IMG/VR virus record: IMGVR_UViG_3300015241_000002
Span: 1 to 64,000 of that record
DNA: 64,000 nucleotides
Direction: 5' to 3' (one strand)
From: a virus
Each line of letters begins with the position of its first letter. Position 1 is the stretch's first letter. Positions 3,577-49,276 of this stretch are shown here, piece after piece. The notes beneath the pieces are model-generated. The model was not told where the DNA came from and searched no databases. It saw nothing but the letters and a program-made list of their open reading frames with translations. A program made the position numbers and the translations under genes.

Positions 3577-3579
3577 TAT

Positions 3580-6955: not shown

Positions 6956-6956
6956 T

Positions 6957-8622: not shown

Positions 8623-8623
8623 T

Positions 8624-12512: not shown

Positions 12513-14132
12513 TTATCTCCAGGCGTCGTCGTAGGCATAAGAGAAACCTTCATTGGTAATCGAAGTAGATGAGCCTCCTGGTCTCTGCATAACGATCTGA
12601 TTAGATCCAGATAGTAAGGACCACCAAGTACGTCCTGTAATATACATAGACCAATCGCTACCATCGGAAAGTCTTGTAAGTGTTCGTCTCTTAAGATCTA
12701 ATACATAACCTTCACCAACTGCTGAATTTGCTAGATTTACGCCACCTAATTGATTAATGATTTCTATTCCAATAGTTGCGCCATTTACTGATTTACCAGC
12801 CACAATAGCAAAAAATTCTGGATTGTAAAATTTAAAAAATTGTCCTGGCGTCCCTATATCGGAAGTGTTATATACATTAAAATATATTAGAGGATATGTC
12901 TCTGCATTGCCATTATTGACCAGTGGAGTAGCAATATAATTGGCAATGCCTAGAGTATTTGCTACTCCAAATGTCGTAGCAACTGCATAAGCAACTGAAT
13001 CTTCGTTTTTCATTTGTATTTGGAACGGGGTGGATCCTATAGAACGTACCCTATCCAGGTCGGATTTGAATCCTATGGGCTTGACCATCAAGACACGTGG
13101 ATTTTGCCCAGGTAATTTAAAATAAAATGGTATAGCAACATCAACGGGGCTAGCTGATGTTTTTAATGTATCATAACGAGATTCATTGATGGGCGGGGTA
13201 TCAATTAAGGTTCCATCTATTACGACAGTTTTGCCTAAAGTAAACTTGGCATCAACATAAGAACCATTAGCACCATCTATAGCAGAATCCGATTCTGCAG
13301 CATCCAGATCTACCAGTCCAGTAACTGTATTAATATCATATATAGGTGGCGTTACGTCAGATGGATCATTAAGTAAAATACCGTTATCTGTTAGCTTGAA
13401 AGTCATATCATCCAATTGCACGGTAGGACCATAGAAAGTAATACCTACAGTGTTCCATGCACTAGAGGATGCGAGTGTAGAAGAATAGGTTTCCACCGTG
13501 CCAATACCCACAGGTGTAGTGACCATTGACTGTATTATAGTACCAGTAATAGTGGATGATGTAGTATATGCAACTGGAGGTGTGGTTCGTTGTGCGGTAG
13601 GAGCCGCTCCAGATCTTAGAAAGAACATTGATAATGCATTCGGAGCGGTAAGAGCCGGCATAGTTAATGAAGGAGTAGTACTTGTAGCGGAGTTAGCAGT
13701 TATAGATGAGACACTACTTACATTGTGTACTACATAAGCATGCATGCGAGTGGTACCACTAGTAGTAGTTGCTGATGCAGATCCTATGCCTATAACAGTG
13801 GCCGCCGCAATTCCACTTACCCAAATTCCGGCAAGTCCCATTGAGGCTACTTGTGTGAAAGTTAGCCCCGAACTTCCCACTCCTACCGAAGATACACCAA
13901 CATCCGAAACGGTAACTATAACTACTACATCGCCCTTATATATGACATTGAGGTTACTACCTACATAATTGATACCAATACCGTCTCCACAACTGGCACC
14001 ACTATTAGGCATAGTTTGCGCATTGTTAGACACAGAATTAGATATACCAGAAAAACCAGCTATAATAGCATTACTGATAACAGCCCAACCAATTGATGGA
14101 CTTGTCACACCTGGATAAGTAGTGAGGGCCAT
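12513..14132 (-). CDS. minor tail protein (distal-tail position)
   Basis: 539-aa Ser/Thr/Gly-rich ORF. Its start abuts the tape measure stop (ATG at 14132). The call rests on position. Confidence 0.5.
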   Translation of the reverse strand: MALTTYPGVTSPSIGWAVISNAIIAGFSGISNSVSNNAQTMPNSGASCGDGIGINYVGSNLNVIYKGDVVVIVTVSDVGVSSVGVGSSGLTFTQVASMGLAGIWVSGIAAATVIGIGSASATTTSGTTRMHAYVVHNVSSVSSITANSATSTTPSLTMPALTAPNALSMFFLRSGAAPTAQRTTPPVAYTTSSTITGTIIQSMVTTPVGIGTVETYSSTLASSSAWNTVGITFYGPTVQLDDMTFKLTDNGILLNDPSDVTPPIYDINTVTGLVDLDAAESDSAIDGANGSYVDAKFTLGKTVVIDGTLIDTPPINESRYDTLKTSASPVDVAIPFYFKLPGQNPRVLMVKPIGFKSDLDRVRSIGSTPFQIQMKNEDSVAYAVATTFGVANTLGIANYIATPLVNNGNAETYPLIYFNVYNTSDIGTPGQFFKFYNPEFFAIVAGKSVNGATIGIEIINQLGGVNLANSAVGEGYVLDLKRRTLTRLSDGSDWSMYITGRTWWSLLSGSNQIVMQRPGGSSTSITNEGFSYAYDDAWR

Positions 14133-17100: not shown

Positions 17101-18574
17101 GCTTCCAATATTTAATTACAAAGAATACTGCAGCAGCTATGGCAATTATAGCAAGTATAATTAAAGCAATTATTCCAAGCAATGGCGCCGCACCTATCTC
17201 GAACGCAGCCGCAGCGGCGGTCAATATAAGGAAGGCACCAGCCATAGCAATAATAACACCAACCAGTATCATTGCAACAGCTGTAGCAGCAAGAATATAA
17301 GTAATCCATTTCTTGACAGTCGGATTGAGCTTGTTAAACCAATTTAGTACAGCACTAAGCGCCTTCACTAAAGCTAGCTTGACAGGGATCAAATTATTAC
17401 CCAGCTCAATACGCATTGCCTGATATTGGTTTTTCAGCTGCTGTACCTTCGCCTGTGGGGTATTTGACATAACCTTGTAAGCAGAAGATGCAGCTCCGCT
17501 AGAGTTATGCATATCATTGGTCATTTCTTTCAACAAACCATTGGAATCACTAATTCCAAGGTTGAAGAAACGCATAGCTTGAATGGTACCGCCAGCACCC
17601 TTGAATATTTCATTAAGCTTAATAGCACGAGCTACTGGAGTTAATTTGCCTAACTTGTCTCGCATCTCAGAGACAATGTCTACCATGGGGCGGAATTTAC
17701 CGGACGCATCCTGAACTTCAATACCCATATCATGGAGATTTTTAATAGCAGTCGGCTTAGACAACGCATCCAAAGCACGAGATGCAGAGGCGGAAGCCAT
17801 AGCTGCGCTAAGTCCATTACGGGTTAGGAAGGCCATCATGCCGGCTAAGTCTTCGATAGACTGTCCAGCCTTCAAAGCTGAGGGCACAGCTCGACCAATG
17901 ACAGCAGCAAATTGCGAATAAGTACCGACGCCTTTTCTGACCAACTGGAACAAGACATCACTAACATGAGTAACTTGCTGAGCTGGTAATTTATAGGCGT
18001 TAAGTACGGCTATAATAGCTCTACCAGCTGTGGCCATATCGGTAGCGCCGCCCACAGAGGCCTGAGCTATAGCCTTAAGAATTTTCTCCGCACCAGGACC
18101 ATTAGTGTCCAAAGAGGAGAAAATATCGTATAAGGATTTTTGAATATCGTCAAAAGCTACTGGGACTGTTCTCGCTACTCGGAGTCCGATATCAGATAAA
18201 TCCTTGAAACTTACCTTAGCCTTGTCAACCTGTGTCAGTGTTAAAGAGACTTGCTGGTTATATTTAATGGCCTCATTGGTCATCTTGTTAAAGGCATTAA
18301 CACCAATGCCCCCAACAATGGCCATACCAGCACCTATGGTAATAAGATTTTTGCCTCTTGCTATTTGAGCCACCGTTGCTGCTTTGGCTGCTTTAGCAGA
18401 TTTTAAATCTGCAGCCGCTTGGGAGCCTGCAACTTTAATTCCTGCCGCCTGCATTTCATTAACACGCGCCTGTGCAATGGCAATGGAATTAAGTTGTTTA
18501 GAAGTACTAGCTAAGGCAATCGCAGCTTCATTTCTGGCACGCAAAATGAGGTAGATTTCGCTGGCTCCAAACAT
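14132..18574 (-). CDS. tape measure protein with a lytic-transglycosylase-like motif interrupted by an intein
   Basis: 1480 aa. The N-terminus is coiled-coil, followed by a hydrophobic block (ILAATAVAMILVGVIIAMAG...) and Trp-rich repeats (IWN.V....W). The spliced C-terminal region would read NLWNGE/SGWSQFAKNPSSGAYGIPQ. The gene follows the G/G-T chaperones. Confidence 0.9.
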   Translation of the reverse strand: MFGASEIYLILRARNEAAIALASTSKQLNSIAIAQARVNEMQAAGIKVAGSQAAADLKSAKAAKAATVAQIARGKNLITIGAGMAIVGGIGVNAFNKMTNEAIKYNQQVSLTLTQVDKAKVSFKDLSDIGLRVARTVPVAFDDIQKSLYDIFSSLDTNGPGAEKILKAIAQASVGGATDMATAGRAIIAVLNAYKLPAQQVTHVSDVLFQLVRKGVGTYSQFAAVIGRAVPSALKAGQSIEDLAGMMAFLTRNGLSAAMASASASRALDALSKPTAIKNLHDMGIEVQDASGKFRPMVDIVSEMRDKLGKLTPVARAIKLNEIFKGAGGTIQAMRFFNLGISDSNGLLKEMTNDMHNSSGAASSAYKVMSNTPQAKVQQLKNQYQAMRIELGNNLIPVKLALVKALSAVLNWFNKLNPTVKKWITYILAATAVAMILVGVIIAMAGAFLILTAAAAAFEIGAAPLLGIIALIILAIIAIAAAVFFVIKYWKQISSFAVRIWNDVYKAVAHAASNVVHAWDNAYHAVKSTWDAIYKAISTAVNEVVMAIAHAWQNVVHSFDNVLHALDNLDHAWSNLWHAIINVWNAVMPVIRGIGLFFYAVLGIQIKLIFEALKKTWQITWDVVSAIWNTVGHPIFTAILDTVRFMWSGVKIIWRAQVSLWRATWNLMKATWNNVGRPIFDFILSSIKFMWTSIRVIWNAMITVWRGTWNLIRGIWDNIGKPVFTAAGNSIKAIWRNVISPTFTAISNGWRSLWSGMSNVFSSIWNGVQRAIRGALNGIISVINAFIGGINALLGHLPGHFHIDKIGTIADPNAKGPAHTPNTRGFARGGVLPGYSPGKDNIRLPAYMFSGGEGILIPEAVRAIGGKRGIDRINSMFSNRRSMDKSGMFIGGGIIGGIAGALKSTVGAVEGGLRKGVAAMLRAGLNLAEAPVKAALGSMPGGIIKDISSGGYQKVDQVIRSMIDDLGGKARKAAAKAAASSVGSQGNVTGAGALANQAYAKGQLGRFGWGLDQMGSLINLWNGECVPLRTRILTKRGWLSHGEVEIGDETLGYNPILDCNEWTRITRIVHYEDREVQRLGNRNWQVDVTPGHRWWSEPLESVIKKGGAQKVPGFVRTDELRWGHRIRLSAIANTDGIPTLSLQDAAVLAWIQGDGTLTETSNGKWDGRIYQSKLSQIVRIRAMLVGIDYTETISNRSNSKANWLPEHIFLLPRHYVTDLVKRSQIMDYGLEQFILGLSIEQRSAWLAAMIDAEGHSIGQNGDRGHTTITQNNGEMQDAIKLAVYLEGFKPSRTAHGESAGRIGMTVPYISKFQITKLLERQDVWCVTTELGSWTAEQDGRIFLTGNSGWSQFAKNPSSGAYGIPQALPASKMASSGSDWLTNPATQINWGLNYIRGRYGSPSNAYGTWLNRSPHWYGGGMSPTVFDTPTVIGVGERGAETVSVTPGRGTGPSQNFYITTQEIDPVKHAADLGWEFSRRVG
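14537..15502 (-). mobile_element. intein (322 aa) with LAGLIDADG homing-endonuclease domain, inside the tape measure protein
   Basis: The N-terminal splice junction is GE/CVPLRTRILT (Cys1). Block B is TPGHRWW. Two dodecapeptide motifs are present (LAWIQGDGT and LAAMIDAEGH). Block F is VWCVTTELGSWTA. The C-terminal junction is IFLTGN/S (Asn then Ser+1). The joined exteins restore an E-S-GW...NPSSGAYG.PQ transglycosylase-like motif. Confidence 0.8.
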
Positions 18575-22949: not shown

Positions 22950-23249
22950 TTAAGGAGTTGCTTTGGCAGGTGCGGCCTTAGCGGGCGTGCTAGTGCTAGG
23001 GGCAGCAGGCTTCTTAGCCTCTTCCAACAGAGCCTCTAGCTCAGCAACACGAGCCTCTAACGCGTCCTTCTCTTCCATAACATTAGCAGCAATAGGAGCA
23101 GGTTCACCAACACTTCCATTAGCTAACCACTGAGCTACTACATCTTCTGGAGCACCCTTAATTTCGTCATCCGGCTCGAACCAGATGACGCTATCAGGAT
23201 CCTTATCATCCTTCTGGTATCCAACTGTGGATAAAGCGACGATAGCCAT
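22950..23249 (-). CDS. hypothetical protein (Ala/Pro-rich C-terminus)
   Basis: 99-aa ORF whose start abuts the capsid gene stop. Confidence 0.5.
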   Translation of the reverse strand: MAIVALSTVGYQKDDKDPDSVIWFEPDDEIKGAPEDVVAQWLANGSVGEPAPIAANVMEEKDALEARVAELEALLEEAKKPAAPSTSTPAKAAPAKATP

Positions 23250-24283
23250 TATGCAATGGCCCCCTTAATCAAATACCCGGTGACACACTTTTGGAAGTCA
23301 CCAGAGGCAGGGTTGATTTCATATCCAACGATCTTAAGATCGTAGCGACGACGCACGCGAATAAGATCAGACGCACGCTTATCCTCACGCCAGCGATCGG
23401 TAATCATTGGAGTACCCCCATAGCTCCAAACAAATTCATAACCGAACGCAGGGATCTTAATACCTGGACGTGGGGGAACCCAAGCGAGCAAAACATCTTT
23501 GCCCCAAAGATAGGAACCCACAACAGCGTTACCAGCAGTACCCATACCACCGGTACCAACGGCAACACCAGGAACAATGATGTTTGGAATACCCAGAACA
23601 GCACCGATAATCTCCGGAGTGAGAATAGCACGCTCCGAATACTTAATGCGCTCGATGATATCGGGGTGATCCTCCAACTGCGACATAACCTGGTAAGGGA
23701 TGACGGCAGTATTAGGCTCCATGAACACCTTGGCATGGACGGCACGAGTACCAGTACGAACCATGCCGATCGGGTCTGACGTAGCATAAGTATTCCACTG
23801 CGAAGCAGAAACAGCAGAAATATCAATGCTCAGACCAGATGCAAAGTTAGCAATTGTAGTAGCTAACGTCTGCATGGCAACTTCACGACTAAGAAGAATC
23901 TTAGAAGTAAGGAGTTCAGTACCATCCCGGTCAGGAGAAAGAGGTGAATCAACGTTCTCACGCTCTTCATCAGTAACAGGAATCTGTAGCGCGTGCTCCT
24001 GAGCATAGTACGAGTCCAGAGAAAGCTTCAAACCTGGAATTTCATTAGCCTCAGTACCGGGAGCGCGGTAGTCGCCAACTTCTGGCAACCAAGCTTCACG
24101 GCCGAACACGTAATACTTATCAGACTGCTTCCTAACACCCACTGCTGGGAAAAGCTGTTCACCAACAAGAGAGTTATTCGGCCAGCCCAACGAAATTTCT
24201 GTAAGAACGGCATCAATGTGGACGTTGCCGGTTCCCGTAGGCTGATAAACTGCGAGAGTCTTTCCTCTATCGAACCTTGCCAT
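23249..24283 (-). CDS. major capsid protein (Mu gpT / protein E-like, HK97 fold)
   Basis: 344 aa, placed after the protease/scaffold and decoration genes. The N-terminal LFP.VGV.K.SDKYYVF..E.W and the overall length match the major capsid protein E family as I remember it. Confidence 0.75.
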   Translation of the reverse strand: MARFDRGKTLAVYQPTGTGNVHIDAVLTEISLGWPNNSLVGEQLFPAVGVRKQSDKYYVFGREAWLPEVGDYRAPGTEANEIPGLKLSLDSYYAQEHALQIPVTDEERENVDSPLSPDRDGTELLTSKILLSREVAMQTLATTIANFASGLSIDISAVSASQWNTYATSDPIGMVRTGTRAVHAKVFMEPNTAVIPYQVMSQLEDHPDIIERIKYSERAILTPEIIGAVLGIPNIIVPGVAVGTGGMGTAGNAVVGSYLWGKDVLLAWVPPRPGIKIPAFGYEFVWSYGGTPMITDRWREDKRASDLIRVRRRYDLKIVGYEINPASGDFQKCVTGYLIKGAIA

Positions 24284-24300
24284 TTTGATTACACCTCCTT

Positions 24301-24717
24301 TTAGAAGACAGTACCTGGAGTAAGCATGACATCAATGAATCCACCACTGGAACCGACACCGGTCATAGCAAAACCAAGAACGTTTTCAGTGGAAACTGCC
24401 GCACGGGCTAAACCATTAGCAGCACTAGCAATCTTAACTCCGGCCGTAATAGCGACAGCAGTAGTTTGAACACGAACTAGACCAAGAAGAGCACAGTTAA
24501 TTTGTGCCTTACCGGTAGCAAGACGAACTGTGTCAAGATCTTCCATGCAGACTACTAACAATCCCGTTGCGGCGTTGCCGGCAATGGCAACGGTGTTCAA
24601 GTTAAGTACTTGTCCTCCTGAACCAACAGCAGGCTTAAGAATAAGCCCTGCGGTGTATGCAGTAGCACCTGTGGCAAGGAATCCCTTGTCAAGCACATAG
24701 TTCTGGCCGACACCCAT
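24301..24717 (-). CDS. head decoration protein (DUF2190-like)
   Basis: 138 aa, Gly/Ala-rich and predicted beta-rich. It lies between the scaffold/protease and capsid genes, which is the typical DUF2190 context. Confidence 0.5.
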   Translation of the reverse strand: MGVGQNYVLDKGFLATGATAYTAGLILKPAVGSGGQVLNLNTVAIAGNAATGLLVVCMEDLDTVRLATGKAQINCALLGLVRVQTTAVAITAGVKIASAANGLARAAVSTENVLGFAMTGVGSSGGFIDVMLTPGTVF

Positions 24718-25964
24718 TAGTTGTCACCTCCAAAGGAATACGCATCTTCCTGGTATCTGTGGTAAAGATCCGGATTCCTCGCAGCAATGATGTCAGCAGC
24801 ATCCGCAAAACCAAGAGTCTTGTCACTCTCCTGTAGCTTCTTGACTTCCTCAGTGAATTCATCACTTGAAGTCTTACCATCATCATTAACCTTATTACGG
24901 AGGTACCCACGCTCTCCAAGGGCCACAATCTGAGAATCAACCATTTGGTTGAATCCATCAAGAATGACCTTGGAAGTAGCAGCATCATTAAGCTGCATAA
25001 GAGTAGCCGTAAGCGAATCTCTCATAGGAACAGGAATTGCGTAACCCTTAGCACTTGCACGATCACAAAGTTCCTTGACCGTCTTGGTTACGTTCTCTTC
25101 CCGCAGCTTATTGCTAAACTCGGTGAGCTTCGCACCCTGGTTCTCAACTAGCTGAGCCTGAGCTTGATAAAGCTGCAACAGAGTCGCAACTACAGGGTTG
25201 TTATCTCCAAGCTTCTTAGCCTCTTCCATAGCGGCAAGAACTGCCGGGTCGGTAATAGGCGCAGGCACTGGTGGAACAACTACGGGTGGCGTTACAGTAG
25301 GAGCCGGTGGAACTGCCGGAATAGGCACAGGCGGCGCAAAAGTAAACTTCTCTAGCGCCTCCAAAACCTGAGCCTCAGTTGCACTCTCACCAAGCCCAAG
25401 CTTAATACCGAGTGACTTAACCTGTTCAGGCGTCATGTTGCTACCTCCTTCATTGGGATTAGTGGGTGCATCTGGAACATTTGCAAAAACCTCCGACAGA
25501 TTGATTGGCATTAAATCTTTTAAGAAAGGACGATTGGTAAGAGAGCCGCCAAATATAACGTTCTGATAAGTTACACCAGACTTTGCGTCAGTCCACTCAT
25601 CATCAAATTCAGCAGAGAAATAACGATAGGCCTTGTCCTTAATTGACTGAAATGCTTTCTTCGTAAAGTCAACTAAGAGCCAAAGCCCATCTGTACCACG
25701 GTCTGCTGCATCTTTAACCCAACCGGCAGCATCACCACCATAAAGTTTATGATCGTAGTCAATATCAAGCTGTTGTACACGAACATTATTCTTGATATTG
25801 TCAACGTACTGCTTTACCTTATCTGGGTTAATATCAATGATTCCATACTGAGGATGCTCATACGTGCCCAAAGGCATTGCCTGCAGCCATATAGAAGTGT
25901 CTTCTTCTACGACGTCATCTAATTTTATAGCATACAAATCTAATAAGTAGGAAGCCTTAGCCAT
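24717..25964 (-). CDS. capsid maturation protease / scaffold fusion (Mu gpI-like)
   Basis: 415 aa. The N-terminal MPLGTYEHPQYG.IDI....V......N......LDIDYDH......AAGW...........GLWLLVDFT..A...I....YRYFSAEF matches the Mu-like prophage protein I pattern. A Pro-rich linker and a helical C-terminus follow. Confidence 0.7.
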   Translation of the reverse strand: MAKASYLLDLYAIKLDDVVEEDTSIWLQAMPLGTYEHPQYGIIDINPDKVKQYVDNIKNNVRVQQLDIDYDHKLYGGDAAGWVKDAADRGTDGLWLLVDFTKKAFQSIKDKAYRYFSAEFDDEWTDAKSGVTYQNVIFGGSLTNRPFLKDLMPINLSEVFANVPDAPTNPNEGGSNMTPEQVKSLGIKLGLGESATEAQVLEALEKFTFAPPVPIPAVPPAPTVTPPVVVPPVPAPITDPAVLAAMEEAKKLGDNNPVVATLLQLYQAQAQLVENQGAKLTEFSNKLREENVTKTVKELCDRASAKGYAIPVPMRDSLTATLMQLNDAATSKVILDGFNQMVDSQIVALGERGYLRNKVNDDGKTSSDEFTEEVKKLQESDKTLGFADAADIIAARNPDLYHRYQEDAYSFGGDN

Positions 25965-26385
25965 CGTACGACCTCTTCTTATTGTGAATTATATCACTGA
26001 TATGTGGCTGCGTAACACCAAAATCTCTAGCCAAATCTCTTTGGAAGAAACGGCCGGTAGCCCACAATTCTCTAATCTTCTTAACTTGATCACTGGATAA
26101 CACCGAACGTCCATGACTTTCCCCGTACGACTGTCTACCCTTAGAAACCTTATCCCTCATATTATCTGCTTGTGTTCCAAGAAATAAATGAGCTATTTCA
26201 AAACATGGGGGATTATCACAACGATGAAGTACATACATACCATCAGGTATAGATCCTATCTTTCTAGTCCATTCTAATCGCGTAACTCTCCACAATTTCC
26301 CATCGTATTGGGACAATCCATAACCATCTTTATCAAAATAACCATCCCACTCTACACATGGTATGTCTTGCCAAAGTAACTCCAT
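25957..26385 (-). CDS. HNH homing endonuclease (HNH_3-type with C-terminal HTH)
   Basis: Internal ATG at 26385 preceded by GGAGG. The product contains YVLHRCDNPPCFEIAHLFLGTQADNMRD and then a helix-turn-helix-like LARDFGVTQPHISDIIHNKKR. The gene is inserted inside the head-gene module. Confidence 0.8.
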   Translation of the reverse strand: MELLWQDIPCVEWDGYFDKDGYGLSQYDGKLWRVTRLEWTRKIGSIPDGMYVLHRCDNPPCFEIAHLFLGTQADNMRDKVSKGRQSYGESHGRSVLSSDQVKKIRELWATGRFFQRDLARDFGVTQPHISDIIHNKKRSYDG

Positions 26386-26543
26386 CGTACCTCCAATCCC
26401 ACATCTTATCTTAATAGTACAGGAAAAAGGCACACATAGGTCTGCGCACCTTATAGAATGTTACAATGTGATCAAGATCAACTTCCGGGCCCTCTTTTGT
26501 CATCGAAAAGCCCCACAGGGAAAGGGCAAAGCGACGCAAAAAT

Positions 26544-26882
26544 TCAGACTAACTTAAGAATGCCTACAACTCGAACAGGTACATCAGTTCCAGAGATCCT
26601 AAGCCAGACAGTATATGTGCCAGCAGCGTGGGCCGGCGGTTTAACTTGGGCGCGGTAGATTACAACTCCAACATTAGCATCTACATCCCAAACTCCAGCA
26701 ACCCAATCCCCAGAAATTGGCTCCACTCCCGGGAATACAGCTGTAGGATCGTAGAGAATGAACGCCATCTCTACAGACATGCTGATAGGAACAAAGACAG
26801 ATCCATTAACCTCCGCGAAGACCGGAACGCGCAATGGCTCAGAAGATAATCTTGGCCTTTCTACAGTTTTAAGTGACATCAT
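26544..26882 (-). CDS. hypothetical protein (beta-rich)
   Basis: 112-aa ORF abutting the stop of the 1180-aa gene. Confidence 0.5.
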   Translation of the reverse strand: MMSLKTVERPRLSSEPLRVPVFAEVNGSVFVPISMSVEMAFILYDPTAVFPGVEPISGDWVAGVWDVDANVGVVIYRAQVKPPAHAAGTYTVWLRISGTDVPVRVVGILKLV

Positions 26883-29800
26883 CTACCTATTTTCTATAGC
26901 CGCTATGTTCCAAACCGGAATGGTAGATCCAATATCCCATTTTGTTTCTATCTGACCCATTACCCATACAGGTTCTAAATTACCAGTAATGTAAGACGGG
27001 AATTGTACGTTGACAATTATAGAGACGTTGCCAACTTGTTGCTGAGATGCAATCCCAAACGCTGTGATGGTTTGTGTAAGTAGGACTCTAGCAATTCCGA
27101 CTAATTCGCCAGATTTAATACCAAATGGAGATATCGTAACGCTACCTGTTGTAACTGTTACGTTACCAACTCGTTCCCCAGATACAATCCCTACTGGAGT
27201 AACTACACTAGCACCTACAGATATACTTGGGTTACCAAAACCTTCTCCACTACTTATCCCAAAGGCTGTGATAGTAACACTGCCGGCAGTTATAGAAGGA
27301 TTGCCTACACTATCACTACTGCTTATACCTGCAGGATTAATACTTGGAGCAGTTACTGAGATACTTATATTACCAACTACCTCAGAACTTCTCACACCGA
27401 ATGGGGCCAACGTCTGAGCCACGCTCAGAGCCCCTACAGCCTCGCCTGACGCTATACCTATAGGGCTGACCGTGACCGATCCTGGCGTGGCCGTGGCGTT
27501 GCCGACAGACTGCCCAGAGTCAATTCCAAATGCATTAATAGACTGTGCTAATTGAACTAGAACATTACCTATAGAACTAGTATCAACAATACCAGAAGCG
27601 TTTATGGTTACGGATCCTGGCTGGACAGAACTATTTCCAATGGTTTCTGAAGATTTAATTCCAAATGGAGATATAGTAGCGATGGAACTGATTGTTGCAT
27701 TTCCAATAATTTCGGAGGATTTAATTCCACTAGCAGAAATTGTAACTGCGCCCGGGGAGACTGTAACGTTGCCTACAGTCTCTCCATCAACAATACCAAA
27801 TGGACTTATTGTAACAGCACCAGTAGTTACACTAATATTGCCTATTTTTTCAGAAGAGAGTAATCCATAAGGATTGATATTACTAGAAGCAAGATTAGTG
27901 TGATTGATAGCTATAGGGCCGCCAGAATCTAAGATTCCAGCATTTTGTGAAACAAATTCCCATCGATAAGAATCAGGCCTAAGATACAGACGAAGGTACC
28001 CAAACCATTGAGAATTTAGTTGATCATAAGCACCCGTTTGTAGAGAGTTAGGCGATCCAGATTCATTTCTAGTGGGCACTCCAGTATGAAGTCCAGAACC
28101 TCCTGTACCGACTACAAACGATTTGATTCCATTACTATCTATGGAAGGGTTAGTAGTTGAAGACGTTCCACGTTCAAACTTGGGGAATCTTTGATATGAG
28201 TGACAATGACCCTCGAATACTATACTACACCCAGCATCATAAAGTAAGTCCCAGAATGTCTGGACGGTTATATCATCCCCAGTAGATCCAGTATTTCCAT
28301 CAGAATATCTAGGGTGATGCCAGAAAGCAATAATAGGCTTACCAGTGTTAGCCGCTAAATCAGATTGCAACCAGGCATATTGTGCAGATGAAGAATCGTG
28401 AGCTGTTTGAGAGTCAGAATCCAATGCAATAATATGCCAACCTGTAGTTGGCGAGTCAAAGCTATAATAGTGTTGTGGTGAGTGAGCTTGTGTACCCCAA
28501 TAGGTATCATACTGAGTAAGATCACCAGGAACCCAATCATGGTTACCAGGAGTTGGCTCCAACCTCGCTTTAATAGCTCCATACATTGTATCAAAGAAAC
28601 CATATTGCGCAGTAGTTCCATCATTAGCAAGGTCACCTGGTAGTAAAACCATAATTGGATTGTCTGCTACAACCTTCGCAGCAACTACAGACGGCGGGGG
28701 GTTAACGCCGGCACCAGGTTGCATATCTGCAACGACTATTAGGAAATCTTCTCGTTCAACTCCAAGCTTAGACTGGAGGAATCTAGCATTTGATGGCCCC
28801 TTACCTGGGTGTAACTGGGATGCAATAAGTCCTGGACCAGATATTACTAAAGGACCAGAAGCTGGACCAATAAATCCCTGTATACCAGTTCTTATAGCAA
28901 TTTGGTTGATGTACTGATCACACCAGTTACCAGTAGATGAAACCTTACCAAGGATCATTACGCCTGAGATAGCGTTAACAGTCGCGGTGAGTGTGTCAAA
29001 TGTATCTACTGGACTTGCAGTGTCATCCCCAATATACAAAGCATAGTGGAATTCAGATCCAGCCGCATTCCACCAAGCTTCCAACCTATACTGAGTATTA
29101 GCCAATAACGTATATGTCGAAGTATAAACTACTGTACTGTTAAGAGAAACAAAAGGATGTGCAGATGTGTTAACTCCAACATAGTTAGCACCATTGCCAC
29201 CCAACTGAACCCACTGCACTGAAGATGTTGGAGCAAGTGTACCAACGAAATATGCGTACGCACGTACGGCAACAACTGCGATGGCGGAAGTACTTAACTG
29301 TAATCTGCACTGAGTACCGGTCTGTGCAGGCAAGAAATAATCTTGAGTACTATCCCACGGATGGGTATTGTCAAAGGTTGGAGAATCTACTATGGCACTA
29401 AATGCAGTATTAGTTCCTCCACCTGAATTACCAGTTGTAACTACTGTTCCATTAGATTGTCCAGCCTGTGCCGCATCGTTAGTAACTGTAATTACTGGAC
29501 CTATTACTGCAGTCCCAATTCTTTCACTACTAGCAATCCCAACAGGACTTATAGTAACAGAACCTTGAGCTACTGTGAGATTCCCTACACTGTCACTAGC
29601 CGCAATTCCAAATGGGCTAATCGTTTGATCCGCAATAGGAGCAATCTGAGCCCCAAGTGGTGTTGCAATGAAGTTAAATTTATTATGTGGTCCGAGAAGT
29701 CCTGGGAAGACTAAGCTAGAAACCATACCAACCACAGAAACAAGTGGACCAGGCTGTGCAGTATCACTAAAAGCCACATCATCATACCATGTTGACCAGT

Positions 29801-30425
29801 TAGCCGTCATGGTCACTGCTGATGAGTGACCGAATCGAACGTCACTAACAAGTGCCGTAGTAGCTCCACCTGTAGCGGAAATCGAGCCCCCACTATCCGG
29901 TGTATTCGTCTCTAGATTTCCGCCAGAATAAATGCGTGCTGCCTGATCAGCAGTACTAGTGGTGATGTTAGTAACATCCCACTCGACCCGGCACCATTGA
30001 TTAAGTGGAATTGCGGCAGTACTAATTGCAAGTTGTGTACCGACATTGTTAAGAATGCGAATCGTGCCAGCAACGTTAATTTGCAATGCTGCTTGAGTCG
30101 CAGCCGATCCAATCATTCCAGCAATACGAGTTGCTAGAGTGGGATATGCAGTTATATATATGTAGAACCGCATAAACGCATTAGCTACAGGTGTTGGGCT
30201 TATACCAGCACCTGAATAGTTTTGATTAGAAGTACAAGAAACCCCACTTATTAGAGTGTTCTTGATAGCAGTTAGACCAGAGTGCACTTGTGCATTGTCG
30301 TAAATACAAGTAGCACCTGCACCGCTAAGACCTACAACAGTAAATTGATTAGGACCAGTAGAGTTAGAATTGGATACAGTCGTGCCTTGCGTGCCTTCAC
30401 ATGTATTTGAAAGATTATCAGCCAC
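26883..30425 (-). CDS. large fibre-like protein with calcineurin-like metallophosphoesterase domain and tandem 22-23-aa repeats
   Basis: 1180 aa, GTG start preceded by GAGGTGA. The central region carries the phosphoesterase motifs VVADMQPG, PGDLANDG, GNHDW, FWHHPRYS and GHCHSYQR. It has 13 C-terminal and 2 upstream copies of a VTISPFGI.SSE.IGN.-type repeat. Confidence 0.7.
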   Translation of the reverse strand: MADNLSNTCEGTQGTTVSNSNSTGPNQFTVVGLSGAGATCIYDNAQVHSGLTAIKNTLISGVSCTSNQNYSGAGISPTPVANAFMRFYIYITAYPTLATRIAGMIGSAATQAALQINVAGTIRILNNVGTQLAISTAAIPLNQWCRVEWDVTNITTSTADQAARIYSGGNLETNTPDSGGSISATGGATTALVSDVRFGHSSAVTMTANWSTWYDDVAFSDTAQPGPLVSVVGMVSSLVFPGLLGPHNKFNFIATPLGAQIAPIADQTISPFGIAASDSVGNLTVAQGSVTISPVGIASSERIGTAVIGPVITVTNDAAQAGQSNGTVVTTGNSGGGTNTAFSAIVDSPTFDNTHPWDSTQDYFLPAQTGTQCRLQLSTSAIAVVAVRAYAYFVGTLAPTSSVQWVQLGGNGANYVGVNTSAHPFVSLNSTVVYTSTYTLLANTQYRLEAWWNAAGSEFHYALYIGDDTASPVDTFDTLTATVNAISGVMILGKVSSTGNWCDQYINQIAIRTGIQGFIGPASGPLVISGPGLIASQLHPGKGPSNARFLQSKLGVEREDFLIVVADMQPGAGVNPPPSVVAAKVVADNPIMVLLPGDLANDGTTAQYGFFDTMYGAIKARLEPTPGNHDWVPGDLTQYDTYWGTQAHSPQHYYSFDSPTTGWHIIALDSDSQTAHDSSSAQYAWLQSDLAANTGKPIIAFWHHPRYSDGNTGSTGDDITVQTFWDLLYDAGCSIVFEGHCHSYQRFPKFERGTSSTTNPSIDSNGIKSFVVGTGGSGLHTGVPTRNESGSPNSLQTGAYDQLNSQWFGYLRLYLRPDSYRWEFVSQNAGILDSGGPIAINHTNLASSNINPYGLLSSEKIGNISVTTGAVTISPFGIVDGETVGNVTVSPGAVTISASGIKSSEIIGNATISSIATISPFGIKSSETIGNSSVQPGSVTINASGIVDTSSIGNVLVQLAQSINAFGIDSGQSVGNATATPGSVTVSPIGIASGEAVGALSVAQTLAPFGVRSSEVVGNISISVTAPSINPAGISSSDSVGNPSITAGSVTITAFGISSGEGFGNPSISVGASVVTPVGIVSGERVGNVTVTTGSVTISPFGIKSGELVGIARVLLTQTITAFGIASQQQVGNVSIIVNVQFPSYITGNLEPVWVMGQIETKWDIGSTIPVWNIAAIENR
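27020..27885 (-). repeat. in-frame tandem repeat array (about 13 units of 22-23 codons) at the C-terminus of the 1180-aa protein
   Basis: Successive units include NINPYGLLSSEKIGNISVTTGA, VTISPFGIVDGETVGNVTVSPGA and VTISASGIKSSEIIGNATISSIA, continuing to TITAFGIASQQQVGNVSIIVNVQ. Boundaries are approximate. Confidence 0.75.
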
Positions 30426-30428
30426 GAC

Positions 30429-30596
30429 TCACCTCACTCCAAATTCCAACTCATCAATATGATGCCAACTCTTGGAACCATCATTCCAAATTATATTTAC
30501 AAATTCCCCTTCAATGTCTTTGACCATGCCAAAATTCCCATCAGACTTTCGTTTGACAGGATCATAATGCTTAAAGAACTGTCGCTGTTCTAGCAT
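30429..30596 (-). CDS. hypothetical protein (55 aa)
   Basis: Translated by hand (MLEQRQFFKHYDPVKRKSDGNFGMVKDIEGEFVNIIWNDGSKSWHHIDELEFGVR). Its stop lies 3 nt before the GTG of the next gene. Confidence 0.45.
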   Translation of the reverse strand: MLEQRQFFKHYDPVKRKSDGNFGMVKDIEGEFVNIIWNDGSKSWHHIDELEFGVR

Positions 30597-30606
30597 TGCT
30601 TACGAC

Positions 30607-31170
30607 TTAGTTCAATGCTTCAAGCTTGTACTGGTGTAGCTGAATCGAAGTAGTCGCTGTAGCCACTGAGAATTTGGCTTGGAGATCAACGGCCTGTGAA
30701 GTTGTGGTATCGAAGTTAGAACCTACTGCAGGCGCTGACGCGGGAATGAATAAGGTACCAGCGCCACCTGCAGTTGCTACTGGTGAACCGACTACTGCCT
30801 CAGACGTCCACTGCCCAATTCCCATTAGATTACCTGTTGCACCAATCACTCGGCACACCAAGTCGATTTCTAATGCCCAGGTGACGTCAGTCTTTGCAAC
30901 GATATTCAAATTCATTGCAGCTGCTGCGTTGTTGTACACAGCGGTCCCACCAAATAGCACCTGAAACAATAGAGTGCCCGGCGTAGTCACCACACAGCTA
31001 ACACGACCCATTGCTGTAAGTCTAATCGTCTTGCCAATGGAGAAAAAGTTAGCTGGTAGCGTATACTTAGCAGCAGCAGGTATGATAGACCCTTGTGTGG
31101 TGGAGTTAGTGATAGCTGTTCCATCAACCTGCGCCGTGACTAAAGTTTCTTGCCAAGTCTGCAAACTCAT
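30607..31170 (-). CDS. hypothetical virion protein
   Basis: 187-aa beta-rich ORF in the cassette between the portal and protease genes. Confidence 0.5.
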   Translation of the reverse strand: MSLQTWQETLVTAQVDGTAITNSTTQGSIIPAAAKYTLPANFFSIGKTIRLTAMGRVSCVVTTPGTLLFQVLFGGTAVYNNAAAAMNLNIVAKTDVTWALEIDLVCRVIGATGNLMGIGQWTSEAVVGSPVATAGGAGTLFIPASAPAVGSNFDTTTSQAVDLQAKFSVATATTSIQLHQYKLEALN

Positions 31171-31185
31171 TTTATTCCCCTATCC

Positions 31186-32067
31186 TTATAGCTTGAATAT
31201 TCCACGGCCAGCAGTATTGTCCCATGAGACGACAATATTTCCACCATTAGGAGTAACTGGTAATCCAGAACCGGTAGCAGGAGCAAGAGCTCTACTTCCC
31301 GCCGTAACTGTGGTTGACGCTACAGTTAAAGAACGATCCCCAACGTTAGCAAGAGAAGATAAGGTAGCAGACGCTCCATCCGAGAATCTTAAGACAGTAG
31401 TGTTGGGGATGGCCGCAGTTAAAGGTTCAACAACGATCGTAGTAGATGCGCCAGGGCTGGAATCACATGTCACGATGTGAAATCCATCAACTACACCAAT
31501 TATTTGAGAAGTGCCAGCAGTGCCAGTATCTTGTAGAATAAGAATACCATCAATGGCAGCGGCTGTAGCAATAGTCGAGAAAGTTACATCAGCAGCATCA
31601 GCTACGCCATTAAGTACTGTACGAGAAGCCAAATTTACTTTACCATTAGCCCCATAAATTTGGGATGCAGACCAGTCAGTATAAAATTTTCCAACTGTAG
31701 ACACTCCACCGTATGTAATAGCATACCCACCAGCACCAGCTCCACCCGTTCCAACTACGTTCGTTCCACTAATTGGATTTTGAAGACTAAAGTGTGTAGT
31801 ATCTACTACTGTAATTTTCCAAAATCCATTACACGCTGTATTCGTAGTATGGCCATTAATGTATACTAAATCCCCAGTAGACAAACCATGAGTCGTAGCA
31901 GTCAACATAACCGGAGGGGTTGCGGACGTTGAAGATGTTACCTGAATAATAGCCGCTGACGCAGTATTGAAATCCAATATTGCGACTGACATATTTGTGG
32001 CTCCATCGAAGTCAATGGATCCATCAAGAAATCCTTGTCTGCCAGTTTCTGTTAATGCATTTACCAT
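31186..32067 (-). CDS. fibre-like structural protein
   Basis: 293 aa. The segment TATTHGLSTGDLVYINGHTTNTACNGFWKITVVDTTHFSL resembles a small beta-barrel module that recurs in phage fibre and collar proteins. The rest is Gly/Thr/Ser-rich. Confidence 0.45.
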   Translation of the reverse strand: MVNALTETGRQGFLDGSIDFDGATNMSVAILDFNTASAAIIQVTSSTSATPPVMLTATTHGLSTGDLVYINGHTTNTACNGFWKITVVDTTHFSLQNPISGTNVVGTGGAGAGGYAITYGGVSTVGKFYTDWSASQIYGANGKVNLASRTVLNGVADAADVTFSTIATAAAIDGILILQDTGTAGTSQIIGVVDGFHIVTCDSSPGASTTIVVEPLTAAIPNTTVLRFSDGASATLSSLANVGDRSLTVASTTVTAGSRALAPATGSGLPVTPNGGNIVVSWDNTAGRGIFKL

Positions 32068-32068
32068 C

Positions 32069-32566
32069 TTAATTTACCTCCGCACAGGTTGCTTCAACAG
32101 TAATTTGATGAATAGCCTCAATAACACCTGGTTTGGGTGTTACTCTAATGACATAGTTATTGAGAGCACTAGCGTCAGTTCCAGCATCCACAACTAGAAA
32201 ATCTGCATTAACTGCATCTCCAGTTTGATACCCACCCGAAATTACTACCGTTCCAGAAGGACATATAACATTGTAGCCATTAGTGTCCCCAGCCATTAAA
32301 TCCACCGAATAGAAATGTCGAACTAGTTGGAAATTTGAAATTCCAACAGGTCCTTGTGGCCCAACAGGTCCAGTCTGATTCCAATTTAAGGAAGTTTCTC
32401 CGGAAGCACAAGTGGAATCAACTACTCGAAGCTTGCCATCGGAAGTTTTATAACAACCATGAATTACTCCACCAGAATCAGGAATGGACGCATAAGCAAA
32501 CGCCCCAACTCCAATACCAATAGCGATTACTGCACTGCCAATTACTAATTTCTTACGTAATCTCAC
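32069..32566 (-). CDS. secreted/membrane-anchored protein with short collagen-like segment
   Basis: 165 aa. The N-terminus is signal/anchor-like (MRLRKKLVIGSAVIAIGIGVGAFAYA). A GPVGPQGPVG triplet run is present. The gene has an ATGA overlap with the portal gene stop. Confidence 0.5.
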   Translation of the reverse strand: MRLRKKLVIGSAVIAIGIGVGAFAYASIPDSGGVIHGCYKTSDGKLRVVDSTCASGETSLNWNQTGPVGPQGPVGISNFQLVRHFYSVDLMAGDTNGYNVICPSGTVVISGGYQTGDAVNADFLVVDAGTDASALNNYVIRVTPKPGVIEAIHQITVEATCAEVN

Positions 32567-34377
32567 TTGCTACCTCCTGAATTATCTCTACCGGCGTTAG
32601 ATTTTTGCTGGCCACTTGGAGGTGGCCCCTGGCGTGGTAATCCAGCTTGGGCACCTCTTTGCTTACGTCCTCTCTTACGTCCTGCGGTAGCGCTCCCAGG
32701 GGCCACAGGAGGGCCTACACCGGTGCTCCCACCACTATTATTTGCGGGTGGTGGAGTAGGAGCTCCAGGCGTATTTTGATTTGTGCCTGTGGGCGGTCCT
32801 TCAATTGGAGTTTGTGGCTCATCACTTCTATTCATTGGAGTAGCTGCAAGACGACGAGTTGCCTTGTCAATAAGTGGCAAATCCATCTCATCGCGAAGCA
32901 TCTCTTCCAGTGGATCATCTGGAATCAAAGCACCAGCACCAATAAGGTTACGAATAGCAAACGACAACGTACGCCAGTCTGCCTGCTCACCAATTCGTCT
33001 TGCTTTAAGCTTAGGAACTCCTACTCGACTAAAGTTTGCGTCTATTATTTTGGGAATGAGATAAGTATTGATAGTCTCACATACAATGTCCGCAATAAAT
33101 CGAGTCGCCTTGAGGAACATCGTTTGATCTTCCTCTTTGGTAGTCGTATCTACACTCATAAACCCCAGTAGGATATTTTCACGAATAGCTTCCTTGTGTT
33201 CCTTAATGGACGCTAAACAATCTACTCTTTGTCCTTCCAACTTAGCAAACATAATATCCCAATTTGGAGGAAGAACAACATGAGCTCTCTCATTGGTTCG
33301 AAGATTTCTACCCATGTTTTCAGCCATAGATTTGTCGCCTTGACTAAATCCTGGGGGCAATTTAATGATAGGTATACCAATTCCATGCCGTTCTTTCTGA
33401 ATAGCATCGATCTTGTAAAGCTGTTCCATGTAGAACCAATGCTTATACGCAGAGCGCAGAACAGAAATGCCTTCGATATCCCCAGCTTCTCTATCGAAAG
33501 TAAATACAATTAGCTTGCTAATTGGTATATCAACTGGCTGCTGCATTCCAGTCGTAGGAGGCAACATAGTAACACCAGCTGGCCCACCATTTTCATCAAA
33601 ATGCCAAGTCCATACATCCAGCGGATGACGTGGTGCTAACTTCTTAACACAAAGCCTTTTCTGCCCATTTACAATCTTTTCTTCCCATACAATCTCAAAC
33701 ATGTAGTAGCCAAACTCGCACATGAGTAGAGACTCTATAAGGAACTGAGGCCAAGTAATAGACATGTGTGTGAGATTATCCCACACAAAGTCAGCCGCAT
33801 TCTTGTCTGCAGTTTTTGTATTGTCATCGGGCTCTACAAACCAACGCGCAGACAAGACAGGAGTTTTTACAGCCCGCAAAGTCCCCTTGACTGTTCCATC
33901 CGATTTTCTCATTTTGTCATATTGCTGTAAACCCTTAATTCCAACAAGGTCTTGATTGTACTCTCTACGAACCCAAGATGTAAATGGACTTACAGATGAA
34001 CTACCAAGCTCTCCGATACTGACATCTGTGTAATCGACAAGTTGCTTTCCCTGTTCCTTAAGGAGATTACCACCTTCATCAACCTTAAGAGACATAGTAG
34101 GTAACGCTAACCCCTTGACATCACTAGAACTTCTATTGCTGCTATTAGCACCACGCTCTGCGACTATAACAAATGGATCCCCATAATTCTCTACAACCTC
34201 GACAAGATCATATCTTTCCATGACAGTAGACAGAGTAGTGTATTGCTTATTCTGCTCAGCTAAACTAAACTCTTTAGTCGCAGTACTAGTAGAAACTTTG
34301 CTATGTCCATTGCTACTAGCCTGCCCATTCTTACCCACAGGACCGTAAGGATTAGAGCGTCGCTTCTTGTTACTCAT
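32563..34377 (-). CDS. portal protein (Mu gp29 / DUF935-like)
   Basis: 604 aa, immediately downstream of TerL. The central region (YDKMRKSDGTVKGTLRAVKTPVLSARWFVEP...) follows the DUF935 portal pattern. The C-terminal tail is basic and Pro/Gly-rich. Confidence 0.8.
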   Translation of the reverse strand: MSNKKRRSNPYGPVGKNGQASSNGHSKVSTSTATKEFSLAEQNKQYTTLSTVMERYDLVEVVENYGDPFVIVAERGANSSNRSSSDVKGLALPTMSLKVDEGGNLLKEQGKQLVDYTDVSIGELGSSSVSPFTSWVRREYNQDLVGIKGLQQYDKMRKSDGTVKGTLRAVKTPVLSARWFVEPDDNTKTADKNAADFVWDNLTHMSITWPQFLIESLLMCEFGYYMFEIVWEEKIVNGQKRLCVKKLAPRHPLDVWTWHFDENGGPAGVTMLPPTTGMQQPVDIPISKLIVFTFDREAGDIEGISVLRSAYKHWFYMEQLYKIDAIQKERHGIGIPIIKLPPGFSQGDKSMAENMGRNLRTNERAHVVLPPNWDIMFAKLEGQRVDCLASIKEHKEAIRENILLGFMSVDTTTKEEDQTMFLKATRFIADIVCETINTYLIPKIIDANFSRVGVPKLKARRIGEQADWRTLSFAIRNLIGAGALIPDDPLEEMLRDEMDLPLIDKATRRLAATPMNRSDEPQTPIEGPPTGTNQNTPGAPTPPPANNSGGSTGVGPPVAPGSATAGRKRGRKQRGAQAGLPRQGPPPSGQQKSNAGRDNSGGSK

Positions 34378-34398: not shown

Positions 34399-35829
34399 TC
34401 AGAATTCCTGACCGCTCTTGGTGAAGTATCCACTAGCGCCTTCTACGTCATAGCCACCGTATTGTTCGCCAGAACTACGAGTTGCTTCTAAATTAAGATC
34501 CATAACATCTGAAAGATGGTAAGTTGCGCCAAGCTTGTAGATATGAACCAAAGCATAGCGTAAAGCATCCATTGCGTGATCGTCTTGCGCTAAGCTCTTC
34601 TCTGGAGCATTTCTACCATTTGGGGGATTGCTTGACTTGTAATTATTAAACTCACGAATCGTGTTGATGCAAGAGAAATCAACGAATATAGCGGGGAAAT
34701 ATATAGGCCCACCGAATTCATCTTCTTTTTCCTCACGTTCCATGAAAGAACGCACTAAGTCTATACCTTCACGCCAGTTGGTTTTAGCTTCTGGCATTGC
34801 ATAACATGGCACAAGCTTTTGCGATATAGTAGCTGCCGCTTCTGGATCTGCCGCATCTCCAAAAGCAAGGTCTAGGTGGTAGCCAAATGGCTGTTCTCTA
34901 GCCTTGAGCTGTTCACAGTGATCTTCTACACGAGTGAAGCTTTTGTAGTGCTCTCTCCAAATATACACTCTATCATCTGGACTTATTTGGAACTCAATTG
35001 CAGCCAGTGGATTCGTATAACCGAAATCAAATGCGATGTAATTTGGCCATAATGGATTAAATTTAATTTCCTTGACGTGCTTACTTATGTCCCATTCAGG
35101 ATATATCTTTCCAACGAAAGAGCCAAAATCCGCGCCAATTTCCTGAGCAAAAGCTTCTGCAGTCATGGTACGACGTAGTAGCTTTATTTCCGAATCAGAC
35201 TCGCCACCAGGATAAACGGATGGATTGTTCCAAGATGGAAAAGACCATGACGCATATTCAGGAACCGAAGGATCATGCCCTAACATCCACAAGTCATACA
35301 GCCAATTGAATCCTTCTGGCGTCGTTACAAAATCTGCACTTCCTCGATGGTCTGCTAATGCAGGTCGAATGAATCGCTCCCATGTATCTAACTGATGCTT
35401 TGCTGCCTCAGACATAATGACATGGTCCAGACCTTCACCAACGAGATTCTCACTATGGTCAGCACTTTTGCACTCAAGTTTAGTGCCCCAAGGAAACTCG
35501 ATCCACATATTCCCTTGCTTTGGAGAGTAAGCTCGCTTTATAGTCTTATCTTGCCCAAGCTTTCTATTTATAATCAAGTCTTGCCAAATAACTCTAAACT
35601 CTTTTTCCGCCAAAGAGTAGACTGGACCGACGATCCAAAACATTTTGTTAGGGAGAAATAACTTAGGTTCTAGATCTTTCCCAGCCATGTGCGACTTGCC
35701 ATATCTTCTACCACATACAGCTACCCTAAATCTGGCATCAGACCTGTGGAACTCTACTTGTCCTGGGTGGGGCTCATAGCCTATCTGCTTAAAGAAGGCT
35801 GCTTTGGAAATAGCTCTATTATTCGCCAT
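34399..35829 (-). CDS. terL: terminase large subunit
   Basis: 476 aa. PHPGQVEFHRS...VAVCGRRYGKS gives a Walker A-like motif. The acidic nuclease-half motifs GDAADPE and DDHAMDALRY are present. The portal gene follows. Confidence 0.9.
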   Translation of the reverse strand: MANNRAISKAAFFKQIGYEPHPGQVEFHRSDARFRVAVCGRRYGKSHMAGKDLEPKLFLPNKMFWIVGPVYSLAEKEFRVIWQDLIINRKLGQDKTIKRAYSPKQGNMWIEFPWGTKLECKSADHSENLVGEGLDHVIMSEAAKHQLDTWERFIRPALADHRGSADFVTTPEGFNWLYDLWMLGHDPSVPEYASWSFPSWNNPSVYPGGESDSEIKLLRRTMTAEAFAQEIGADFGSFVGKIYPEWDISKHVKEIKFNPLWPNYIAFDFGYTNPLAAIEFQISPDDRVYIWREHYKSFTRVEDHCEQLKAREQPFGYHLDLAFGDAADPEAAATISQKLVPCYAMPEAKTNWREGIDLVRSFMEREEKEDEFGGPIYFPAIFVDFSCINTIREFNNYKSSNPPNGRNAPEKSLAQDDHAMDALRYALVHIYKLGATYHLSDVMDLNLEATRSSGEQYGGYDVEGASGYFTKSGQEF

Positions 35830-49235: not shown

Positions 49236-49276
49236 CGTAACTATTTAAATAAAAACTAAGAGAAAGAAGGTGAACA

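Follow-up and report, generated by a model that had tools for sequence, protein, structure and literature searches.

A phage protein with two ConA-like domains, a purple-acid-phosphatase-type metallophosphoesterase and minor-tail-type repeats: a possible glycan-processing virion appendage

The window analyzed here is a 64,000-nucleotide (nt) stretch of viral DNA, positions 1 to 64,000 of IMG/VR virus record IMGVR_UViG_3300015241_000002. On its minus strand it encodes an 1180-amino-acid (aa) protein, in which a metallophosphoesterase (MPE) domain is embedded among concanavalin A (ConA)-like domains and short repeats. We propose that this protein is a modular, probably virion-borne fibre or appendage that binds a surface glycan and whose phosphoesterase acts on phosphate-containing surface polymers, a reading that we consider about evenly poised between right and wrong. 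Most notable are the replacement of the MPE by an unrelated phosphodiesterase in a near homologue, and the probably mobile gene cassette to which the protein belongs. Virion-associated enzymes determine through which surface layers a phage can pass; they are also mined as depolymerases.

Architecture of the 1180-aa protein

A first-pass annotation of the window, made from the letters and a list of open reading frames (ORFs), had described an 1180-aa ORF with MPE motifs and 15 repeats, and its coordinates and length were borne out. The gene has a GTG start codon with a Shine-Dalgarno sequence (GGAG/GAGG) 5–10 nt upstream, and the start residue is the same in the homologues P0002 and P0135 (P0001–P0226 denote the homologous proteins of the sequence set, and L002–L013 the contigs or loci that carry homologues). 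The domain order is a first ConA-like domain (N1), two repeats, a second ConA-like domain (N2), the MPE domain, 13 repeats and a tail with W motifs, as follows:

26883..30425, minus strand: whole ORF, 1180 aa, GTG start, stop codon at 26883-26885
29691..30425, minus strand: N1, aa 1-245, ConA-like lectin/glucanase jelly-roll (AlphaFold2 (AF2) model and Foldseek)
29496..29627, minus strand: repeat units 1-2, aa 267-310 (267-288 and 290-310), located by a hidden Markov model (HMM) of the repeat
28791..29489, minus strand: N2, second ConA-like domain, aa 313-545 (profile match over aa 321-524), located by the N1-family HMM
27891..28760, minus strand: MPE domain, aa 556-845 (Pfam, motifs and family profile)
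27009..27884, minus strand: repeat units 3-15, aa 848-1139, consensus VTISPxGIxSxExxGNxxVxxGx
26886..27008, minus strand: last 41 aa, a tail that contains three (K/V)W motifs and is shared with homologues

A Pfam scan of the protein returned Metallophos as its sole domain match, and the repeat has no Pfam model. The MPE had been described as bracketed by repeats; units do lie on both sides, but the 230-aa second jelly-roll separates the upstream pair from the MPE. The ∼480 residues (40% of the protein) that make up the two ConA-like domains had been overlooked, as had the 41-aa tail.

The AF2 model of N1 had a predicted local distance difference test score (pLDDT) of 89 and a predicted template modelling (TM) score (pTM) of 0.83. 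In Foldseek comparisons it matched polysaccharide lyases of families PL20 and PL14, the sialic-acid-binding lectin domain of V. cholerae sialidase, the Hc-N domain of botulinum neurotoxin (BoNT) and legume lectins (E values of 1e-7 to 1e-4), with 142 PDB and 212 viral matches at E<=1e-3. The viral structural neighbours are LamG/ConA-like phage proteins, with a best TM score of 0.70. N2 was matched at E=3.4e-12 by an HMM of the N1 family in which it was not included, and has stand-alone homologues in P0147 and P0195; the ConA-like lectin/glucanase jelly-roll was thus recognized in N1 by structure comparison and in N2 by profile. PL20 (2zzj), PL14 (5gmt) and the ConA-like/LamG modules of phage tails have the fold in common with N1 and N2 (TM 0.5–0.7), although sequence identity is <=21%. 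Residues R86, R146 and E148 are invariant in the N1 family. Because N1 comes in three to six tandem copies per protein in P0004 and P0226, a binding module is likelier than a catalytic lyase, and from the models and profiles two lectin-fold domains would fit glycan recognition.

A motif, (H/T)PG(K/R)(G/S)P followed by RF, recurs in three family members just past N1 or just before the MPE (aa 540-545 of the 1180-aa protein, aa 244 and 437 of P0002, and aa 241 of P0135), and may act as a linker or as a site of docking or processing. Directly upstream of the triple-N1 protein P0004, on the phage contig L007 (positions 3355-9300), lies a run of enzyme genes (glycosyltransferases, a methyltransferase, a 2-oxoglutarate (2OG)-Fe oxygenase and a UDP-glucose dehydrogenase) that is reminiscent, by analogy, of virion-glycosylation loci.

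An HMM of the repeat units found exactly 15 copies (2 + 13) with a period of 20–24 aa, mostly 22–23 aa, in agreement with the first-pass count. An HMM derived only from the repeats of other proteins placed them at the same 15 sites in the same register, with 7 of the 15 scoring at least 10 bits vs. none in 100 shuffles; across proteins the consensus is VTxxPxGIxSxExxG. There was no DNA-level tandem repeat, hence recent expansion at the DNA level was ruled out and the units are old and diverged. Two minor tail protein families, phrog_13352 (E=5.6e-24) and phrog_8501 (E=1.7e-7), match the repeat region only. Long arrays of the same 22–23-aa PxGIxSxExxG repeat are present in mycobacteriophage minor tail proteins (phiT46-1 gp23 and Wildcat gp45; PHROG 13352/8501) and in the 835-aa protein XAI96042 of Microcystis phage Mwe-JY26, but unlike the 1180-aa protein these have neither an MPE nor N1. 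The gene for phiT46-1 gp23 is the final minor tail gene ahead of the lysis cassette. The repeat is also abundant in metagenomic proteins, and a profile search against PDB sequences yielded no solved homologue and one spurious designed protein. The 41-aa tail recurs in the repeat-only proteins P0126 and P0131, and similar KW/RW tails are found in P0003 and P0127.

The MPE domain belongs to the purple acid phosphatase branch

The five MPE motifs listed by the first-pass annotation are present in the expected order: VVADMQPG (aa 564), PGDLANDG (aa 596), GNHDW (aa 627), FWHHP (aa 701) and GHCHSYQR (aa 739). Their core residues, D / GD / GNH(D/E) / H / GHxH, fall at aa 568, 597-598, 627-630, 703 and 739-742. 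Pfam Metallophos (PF00149) matched aa 585-744 with 35 bits, above its gathering cut-off of 21.5 (E=2.5e-8). When a profile of the MPE family was compared with the PDB, the best match was a purple acid phosphatase (PAP), wheat PAPhy (6gja, E=7.6e-22), followed by kidney bean PAP (E=1.5e-16) and, far more weakly, GpdQ (E=8e-7). By these sequence comparisons the domain is a true member of the MPE superfamily on the PAP branch.

The PAPs of wheat (6gja) and kidney bean (1kbp/4dhl) have the order and spacing of GD, GNH(D/E), WHxP and GHxHxY(E/Q)R in common with the MPE of the 1180-aa protein. The latter differs by its motif I (ADMQP), by the lack of the GDxxY tyrosinate, and by the lack of an N-terminal fibronectin type III (FN3)-like domain and of secretion: Metallophos is alone in the Pfam scan, and there is no signal peptide. 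GpdQ (2dxl) and the class III cyclic nucleotide monophosphate (cNMP) phosphodiesterases CpdA and SpdA are diesterases of the MPE fold, and D598 and N628 align with Asp50 and Asn80 of GpdQ, but the MPE of the 1180-aa protein has no DxH motif.

The MPE domain queried alone recovered 489 homologues. The nearest (50–59% identity) are stand-alone proteins of ∼320 aa without a signal peptide, whereas farther bacterial relatives (34–40% identity) bear signal peptides or lipoboxes. A clade of 19 members on phage contigs, 53–61% identical to the MPE of the window, has the signature ADMQP, GDxx-N(D/N/H)G, GNHD(W/H), WHHPR and GHCHSYQRFPK, where the bacterial relatives instead have GDI and GDxxY.

The seventh metal ligand of an MPE is either the His of DxH or the Tyr of GDxxY. 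The 1180-aa protein retains six of the seven ligands (predicted to be D568, D598, N628, H703, H740 and H742) and the GNH His, H629, the predicted catalytic residue. The PAP tyrosinate is gone throughout the clade, by a one-residue deletion plus an Asn (GDLA-NDG in the 1180-aa protein), and is kept by the bacterial relatives. Judged from the alignment, this loss defines a signal-peptide-less MPE clade that is so far known from phage contigs only. It may also mean that metal content or activity differs or vanishes. If activity had vanished, the MPE would be a catalytically dead binding module and the whole protein a pure adhesin, in keeping with the loss of the tyrosine/histidine ligand and with a motif I that reads DMQ rather than DxH. 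However, the six ligands, the GNH His, WHHPR and GHCHSYQR are invariant over the 19 members, which at this level of identity argues for selection on the active site. Q570 (of DMQ) and N601 (of GDLA-N), which take the place of the seventh ligand, are themselves invariant and could complete the metal site. We therefore consider a dead module quite unlikely, and the metal site to be selected, altered and probably active.

Tandem MPE copies of the same type, two to four per protein, occur in many metagenomic proteins of 600–2400 aa (P0133, P0138, P0140, P0141, P0143, P0145 and others).

Since the clade has no signal peptide, the enzyme would get outside only via lysis or on the particle. In the former case, the 1180-aa protein would be a non-virion accessory enzyme freed at lysis, which would serve either as a phosphatase in phosphate scavenging or to destroy receptors, by removing phosphorylated surface polymers from debris or neighbour cells. 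Its nearest relatives in cells are indeed secreted phosphoesterases of PAP-like type, which include lipoproteins and proteins annotated as acid phosphatase type 7; stand-alone 320-aa versions of the MPE are encoded in phage contigs; and we only infer that the 1180-aa protein enters the virion. A soluble scavenging enzyme, however, would need neither insertion into long arrays of repeats, along with lectin domains and a C-terminal tail that is conserved, nor a place in a structural operon with a coupled small partner, nor a homologue in a minor-tail slot, and these features make release at lysis unlikely.

A third possibility is that the protein is packaged in the capsid for ejection, or is a cyclic-nucleotide phosphodiesterase with an anti-defence role. 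It is suggested by a gene position close to the portal, the region of MuF-type packaged proteins, and by weak NCBIfam matches to the cyclic-nucleotide phosphodiesterases SpdA and CpdA. The NCBIfam scores are far under cut-off (28.6 vs. 400 and 22.8 vs. 225), which ruled out a cyclic-nucleotide phosphodiesterase, and the Pfam scan found no MuF domain, which ruled out a MuF-like packaged toxin. Lectin-fold domains and tail-protein repeats are also ill-suited to an internal protein, and we regard this possibility as extremely improbable.

MPE and GDPD alternate within a probably mobile cassette

In a word-indexed search N1 gave no match and the full protein gave four; the exhaustive search provided the homologue set, and a scan of IMG/VR recovered five loci. 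The homologous loci share small ORFs with the surroundings of the 1180-aa gene:

31186-32067, minus strand: 293-aa ORF
30607-31170, minus strand: 187-aa ORF, conserved cassette partner
30429-30596, minus strand: 55-aa ORF, in the seeming gap upstream of the 1180-aa gene
26544-26882, minus strand: 112-aa ORF, translationally coupled to the 1180-aa gene

The 187-aa ORF is conserved beside N1/MPE genes, with 66% identity in L005, 39% in L011 and 29% in L004, and had no Pfam, PHROG or PDB match. The 55-aa ORF, MLEQRQFFKHYDPVKRKSDGNFGMVKDIEGEFVNIIWNDGSKSWHHIDELEFGVR, was absent from the ORF list and ends 3 nt ahead of the GTG start of the 1180-aa gene; its homologues (37–45% identity) always adjoin the MPE-encoding gene, in L005, L002 and L004. 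The start of the 112-aa ORF directly follows the stop codon of the 1180-aa gene, and small ORFs homologous to it overlap the fibre gene end in L009 and L012. A terminator-like hairpin lies after the 112-aa ORF, at 26510-26527. Residues ∼123-194 of the 293-aa ORF match ORFs of 137–139 aa in two other loci; in L012 such an ORF immediately precedes the fibre gene, and in L009 it precedes that gene by ∼1.2 kb. A PDB search with the 293-aa ORF was empty. Flavobacterium phage elemoA has a 'PE-PGRS' ORF, adjoining a putative tail fibre, to which the 187-aa ORF has a weak match.

The closest homologue of the 1180-aa protein, P0002 of L005 (66% identity), has N1 and the MPE with a different 22-aa repeat, TIPxPxVxTGET. 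Homologous ORFs of 192 and 55 aa precede it, and a 113-aa ORF that overlaps the end of its gene follows directly, with no sequence similarity to the 112-aa ORF found. In L012, P0127 (805 aa) is a miniature of the 1180-aa protein, composed of N1, three repeats, the MPE, four repeats and an RW tail. Homologues of the 293-aa and 112-aa ORFs lie on either side of its gene, which occupies a minor-tail slot: it comes after the tape measure gene and a further three tail genes, and ahead of the lysin and integrase. In L002 and L004 the MPE is a separate gene of 324–327 aa, followed by a 67-aa homologue of the 55-aa ORF and, later, by a separate N1-headed protein; in L004, genes for a 189-aa protein homologous to the 187-aa ORF and for a polysaccharide-deacetylase protein intervene. 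MPE and N1 are fused in the window, L005, L012 and L013, and have a gene each, in the same neighbourhood, in L002 and L004, a pattern of fusion and fission that ties them to one function.

L011 encodes P0135, the next-nearest N1 homologue after P0002 (59% identity). P0135 has a glycerophosphodiesterase (GDPD) domain where the 1180-aa protein has the MPE, with short repeats on both sides. The domain scored above the PF03009 threshold and matched the PDB entry 'GP-PDE domain protein/ORF58' (E=5e-6), and PF03009 was absent from the 1180-aa protein in the Pfam scan. A 179-aa homologue of the 187-aa ORF precedes P0135, whose gene lies upstream of a sheath-like gene. The first-pass annotation had guessed at phosphodiester-linked substrates, to which the GDPD in the place of the MPE is, by analogy, an independent pointer. 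P0002, P0125, P0128 and P0135 show the same design of N1, repeats, enzyme and repeats, with repeats of unrelated types.

The contigs of the relatives have a G+C content of 55–70% compared with 44% for both the window and the 1180-aa gene, which indicates that the cassette is old and widely spread. On sequence comparison, the small cassette of partners (187-aa, 55-aa and coupled 112-aa ORFs) is found again in further phage contigs, where its position varies.

These data tentatively suggest a broader reading, which we think less probable than its opposite: an unrecognised class of fibres in which non-homologous phosphodiesterase folds (the tyrosine-less PAP-like MPE, and GDPD) would be interchangeable cartridges set into a shaft of beta-repeats, with a conserved ConA-like domain in front as the head, and which would travel with fixed small partner genes (187-aa, 55-aa and ∼110-aa) as a mobile cassette in phages of 44%–70% G+C. 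If so, phosphate-linked surface glycopolymers would be a widespread phage target beyond the Gram-positive hosts (staphylococci, enterococci and lactobacilli) of the virion GDPD enzymes compared below. The MPE/GDPD swap and the fused vs. split genes would form a natural experiment that links lectin head and enzyme in one function.

Proposed mechanism and the weight of the genomic context

We infer virion incorporation, fibre shape, catalytic activity and substrate of the 1180-aa protein from the above comparisons. In the proposed mechanism, the beta-strand repeats, with three short strands per 22–23-aa unit, would form an elongated shaft, possibly solenoid-like or oligomeric, and N1 and N2 would anchor the particle to a glycan of the host surface. 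The embedded phosphoesterase, with a dinuclear metal site, would hydrolyse phosphate ester or diester linkages of the glycan polymer, with teichoic-acid-like polymers, phosphoglycan or capsule as candidates; teichoic acid, which the first-pass annotation had named, is one among these. Hydrolysis would let the phage cross or process the surface layer, like the GDPD domains in tail proteins of Gram-positive phages. The product of the coupled 112-aa ORF may be an assembly or attachment partner, with a putative chaperone role. On the particle, the protein would be a tail side fibre, or a neck or head fibre.

The first-pass idea of a fibre-like receptor-binding protein or depolymerase is partly supported: its observations were confirmed, and the tail-family repeats, the lectin folds and P0127 in a minor-tail slot speak for it. 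Several results weigh against it, among them the loss of the PAP tyrosine described above. The AF2 monomer of the repeat array, the check that the first-pass annotation had proposed, is all-beta with ∼3 short strands per unit, but its pLDDT is a low 49.5. The Foldseek list of this model consists almost entirely of right-handed beta-helix tailspikes and lyases, all at E>0.6 and hence non-significant. The term 'fibre' is provisional because the array could not be modelled confidently. The proposed function is also without an anchor in a characterised relative, because among 50,697 deposited phage records tblastn found nothing with N1 and, with the MPE, a weak match to Bacillus phage G gp352 and none close. 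A scan of GTDB genomes gave a best identity of 38%, no close relative and hence no prophage or host clue, and no lysis genes informative on the host envelope type were identified in the window. Finally, the gene lies in the head block of the following minus-strand genes:

34399-35829, minus strand: large terminase
32563-34377, minus strand: Mu-like portal
32069-32566, minus strand: 165-aa ORF directly after the portal
25957-26433, minus strand: HNH endonuclease with C-terminal helix-turn-helix (HTH)
24717-25964, minus strand: Mu-like (head) protease
23249-24283, minus strand: capsid protein
downstream of the capsid gene, minus strand: neck genes
14132-18574, minus strand: tape measure, 1480 aa
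10043-14132, minus strand: tail-tip genes

The 1180-aa gene is part of this structural operon, on the same strand and between the portal and the Mu-like protease. It is ∼8 kb from the tape measure, with head and neck genes between, and farther from the tail-tip genes. In contrast, the genes for P0127 in L012 and for phiT46-1 gp23 do lie downstream of the tape measure, within the tail-tip block.

Such a position would suit a head/neck decoration fibre, a Hoc-like or whisker-like adhesin with its domains on the capsid or collar, that would adhere reversibly to surface or environmental glycans and process them. The cassette accompanies the gene between portal and head protease; the Mwe-JY26 repeat protein gene sits between capsid and tail-tube genes; and in L004 and L011 the cassette is upstream of tail tube or sheath genes. 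However, gene position in the window is weak evidence because the cassette moves between genomes, being found in a minor-tail slot in L012 and in mycobacteriophages, and the HNH endonuclease beside it hints at mobile insertion and suggests a hot spot of insertion between portal and protease. We consider a head/neck decoration fibre somewhat unlikely.

Megablast of 20 kb of the window against the same deposited phage records gave no match, and its capsid protein is <=33% identical to that of any deposited phage; by this measure of sequence novelty the window is a novel tailed phage.

Comparison with virion-borne phosphodiesterases

The nearest functional precedents are the GDPD domains of phage tail proteins. 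The Tal protein of Lactobacillus phage Ld17 has a virion GDPD domain (Cornelissen et al., 2016, as cited in PMC10194240), the central spike of Staphylococcus phage 812 combines a lectin knob with a phosphodiesterase (GDPD) petal domain (PMC13433997), and tail modules of enterococcal phages include GDPDs, the sole phosphodiesterase type listed when enterococcal tail lysins were surveyed (PMC10194240). Ld17 Tal and the phage 812 spike have a phosphodiester-cleaving and a lectin-like domain in one tail protein, as proposed here for the 1180-aa protein, and P0135, its near N1 homologue, bears a GDPD as they do. The 1180-aa protein, in contrast, has an MPE (predicted to be a dinuclear alpha-beta-beta-alpha sandwich) in place of a GDPD TIM barrel; its catalytic domain lies between repeat arrays, its gene is outside the baseplate block, and it is known here from its sequence. 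It would thus work like the virion GDPD enzymes yet is not a member, because the catalytic fold differs.

In the searchable literature we found no precedent for an MPE in a phage fibre, tail or minor tail protein, and the MPE fold in a virion-fibre role appears not to have been described previously. Should wall or capsule phosphodiesters prove to be its substrates, the MPE would add a second, unrelated catalytic fold to the virion phosphodiesterase toolbox, and would define a modified PAP active site in which the tyrosine is replaced. The signature ADMQP, GDxxN and GHCHSYQRFPK can be used to trace such enzymes in metagenomes.

Other features of the window

The product of the 165-aa ORF that follows the portal begins with a hydrophobic segment in its N-terminal part, contains a short collagen-like stretch, GPVGPQGPVG, and gave no family match. 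The tape-measure protein has a C-terminal transglycosylase-like segment (aa 1346-1411, phrog_12661). The plus strand carries the replication/early region, which encodes DNA polymerase A, uracil-DNA glycosylase (UDG), an SNF2 helicase and a DUF932 protein, and in which the tRNA genes Leu-TAA (46741-46823) and Arg-TCT (49162-49236) are located.

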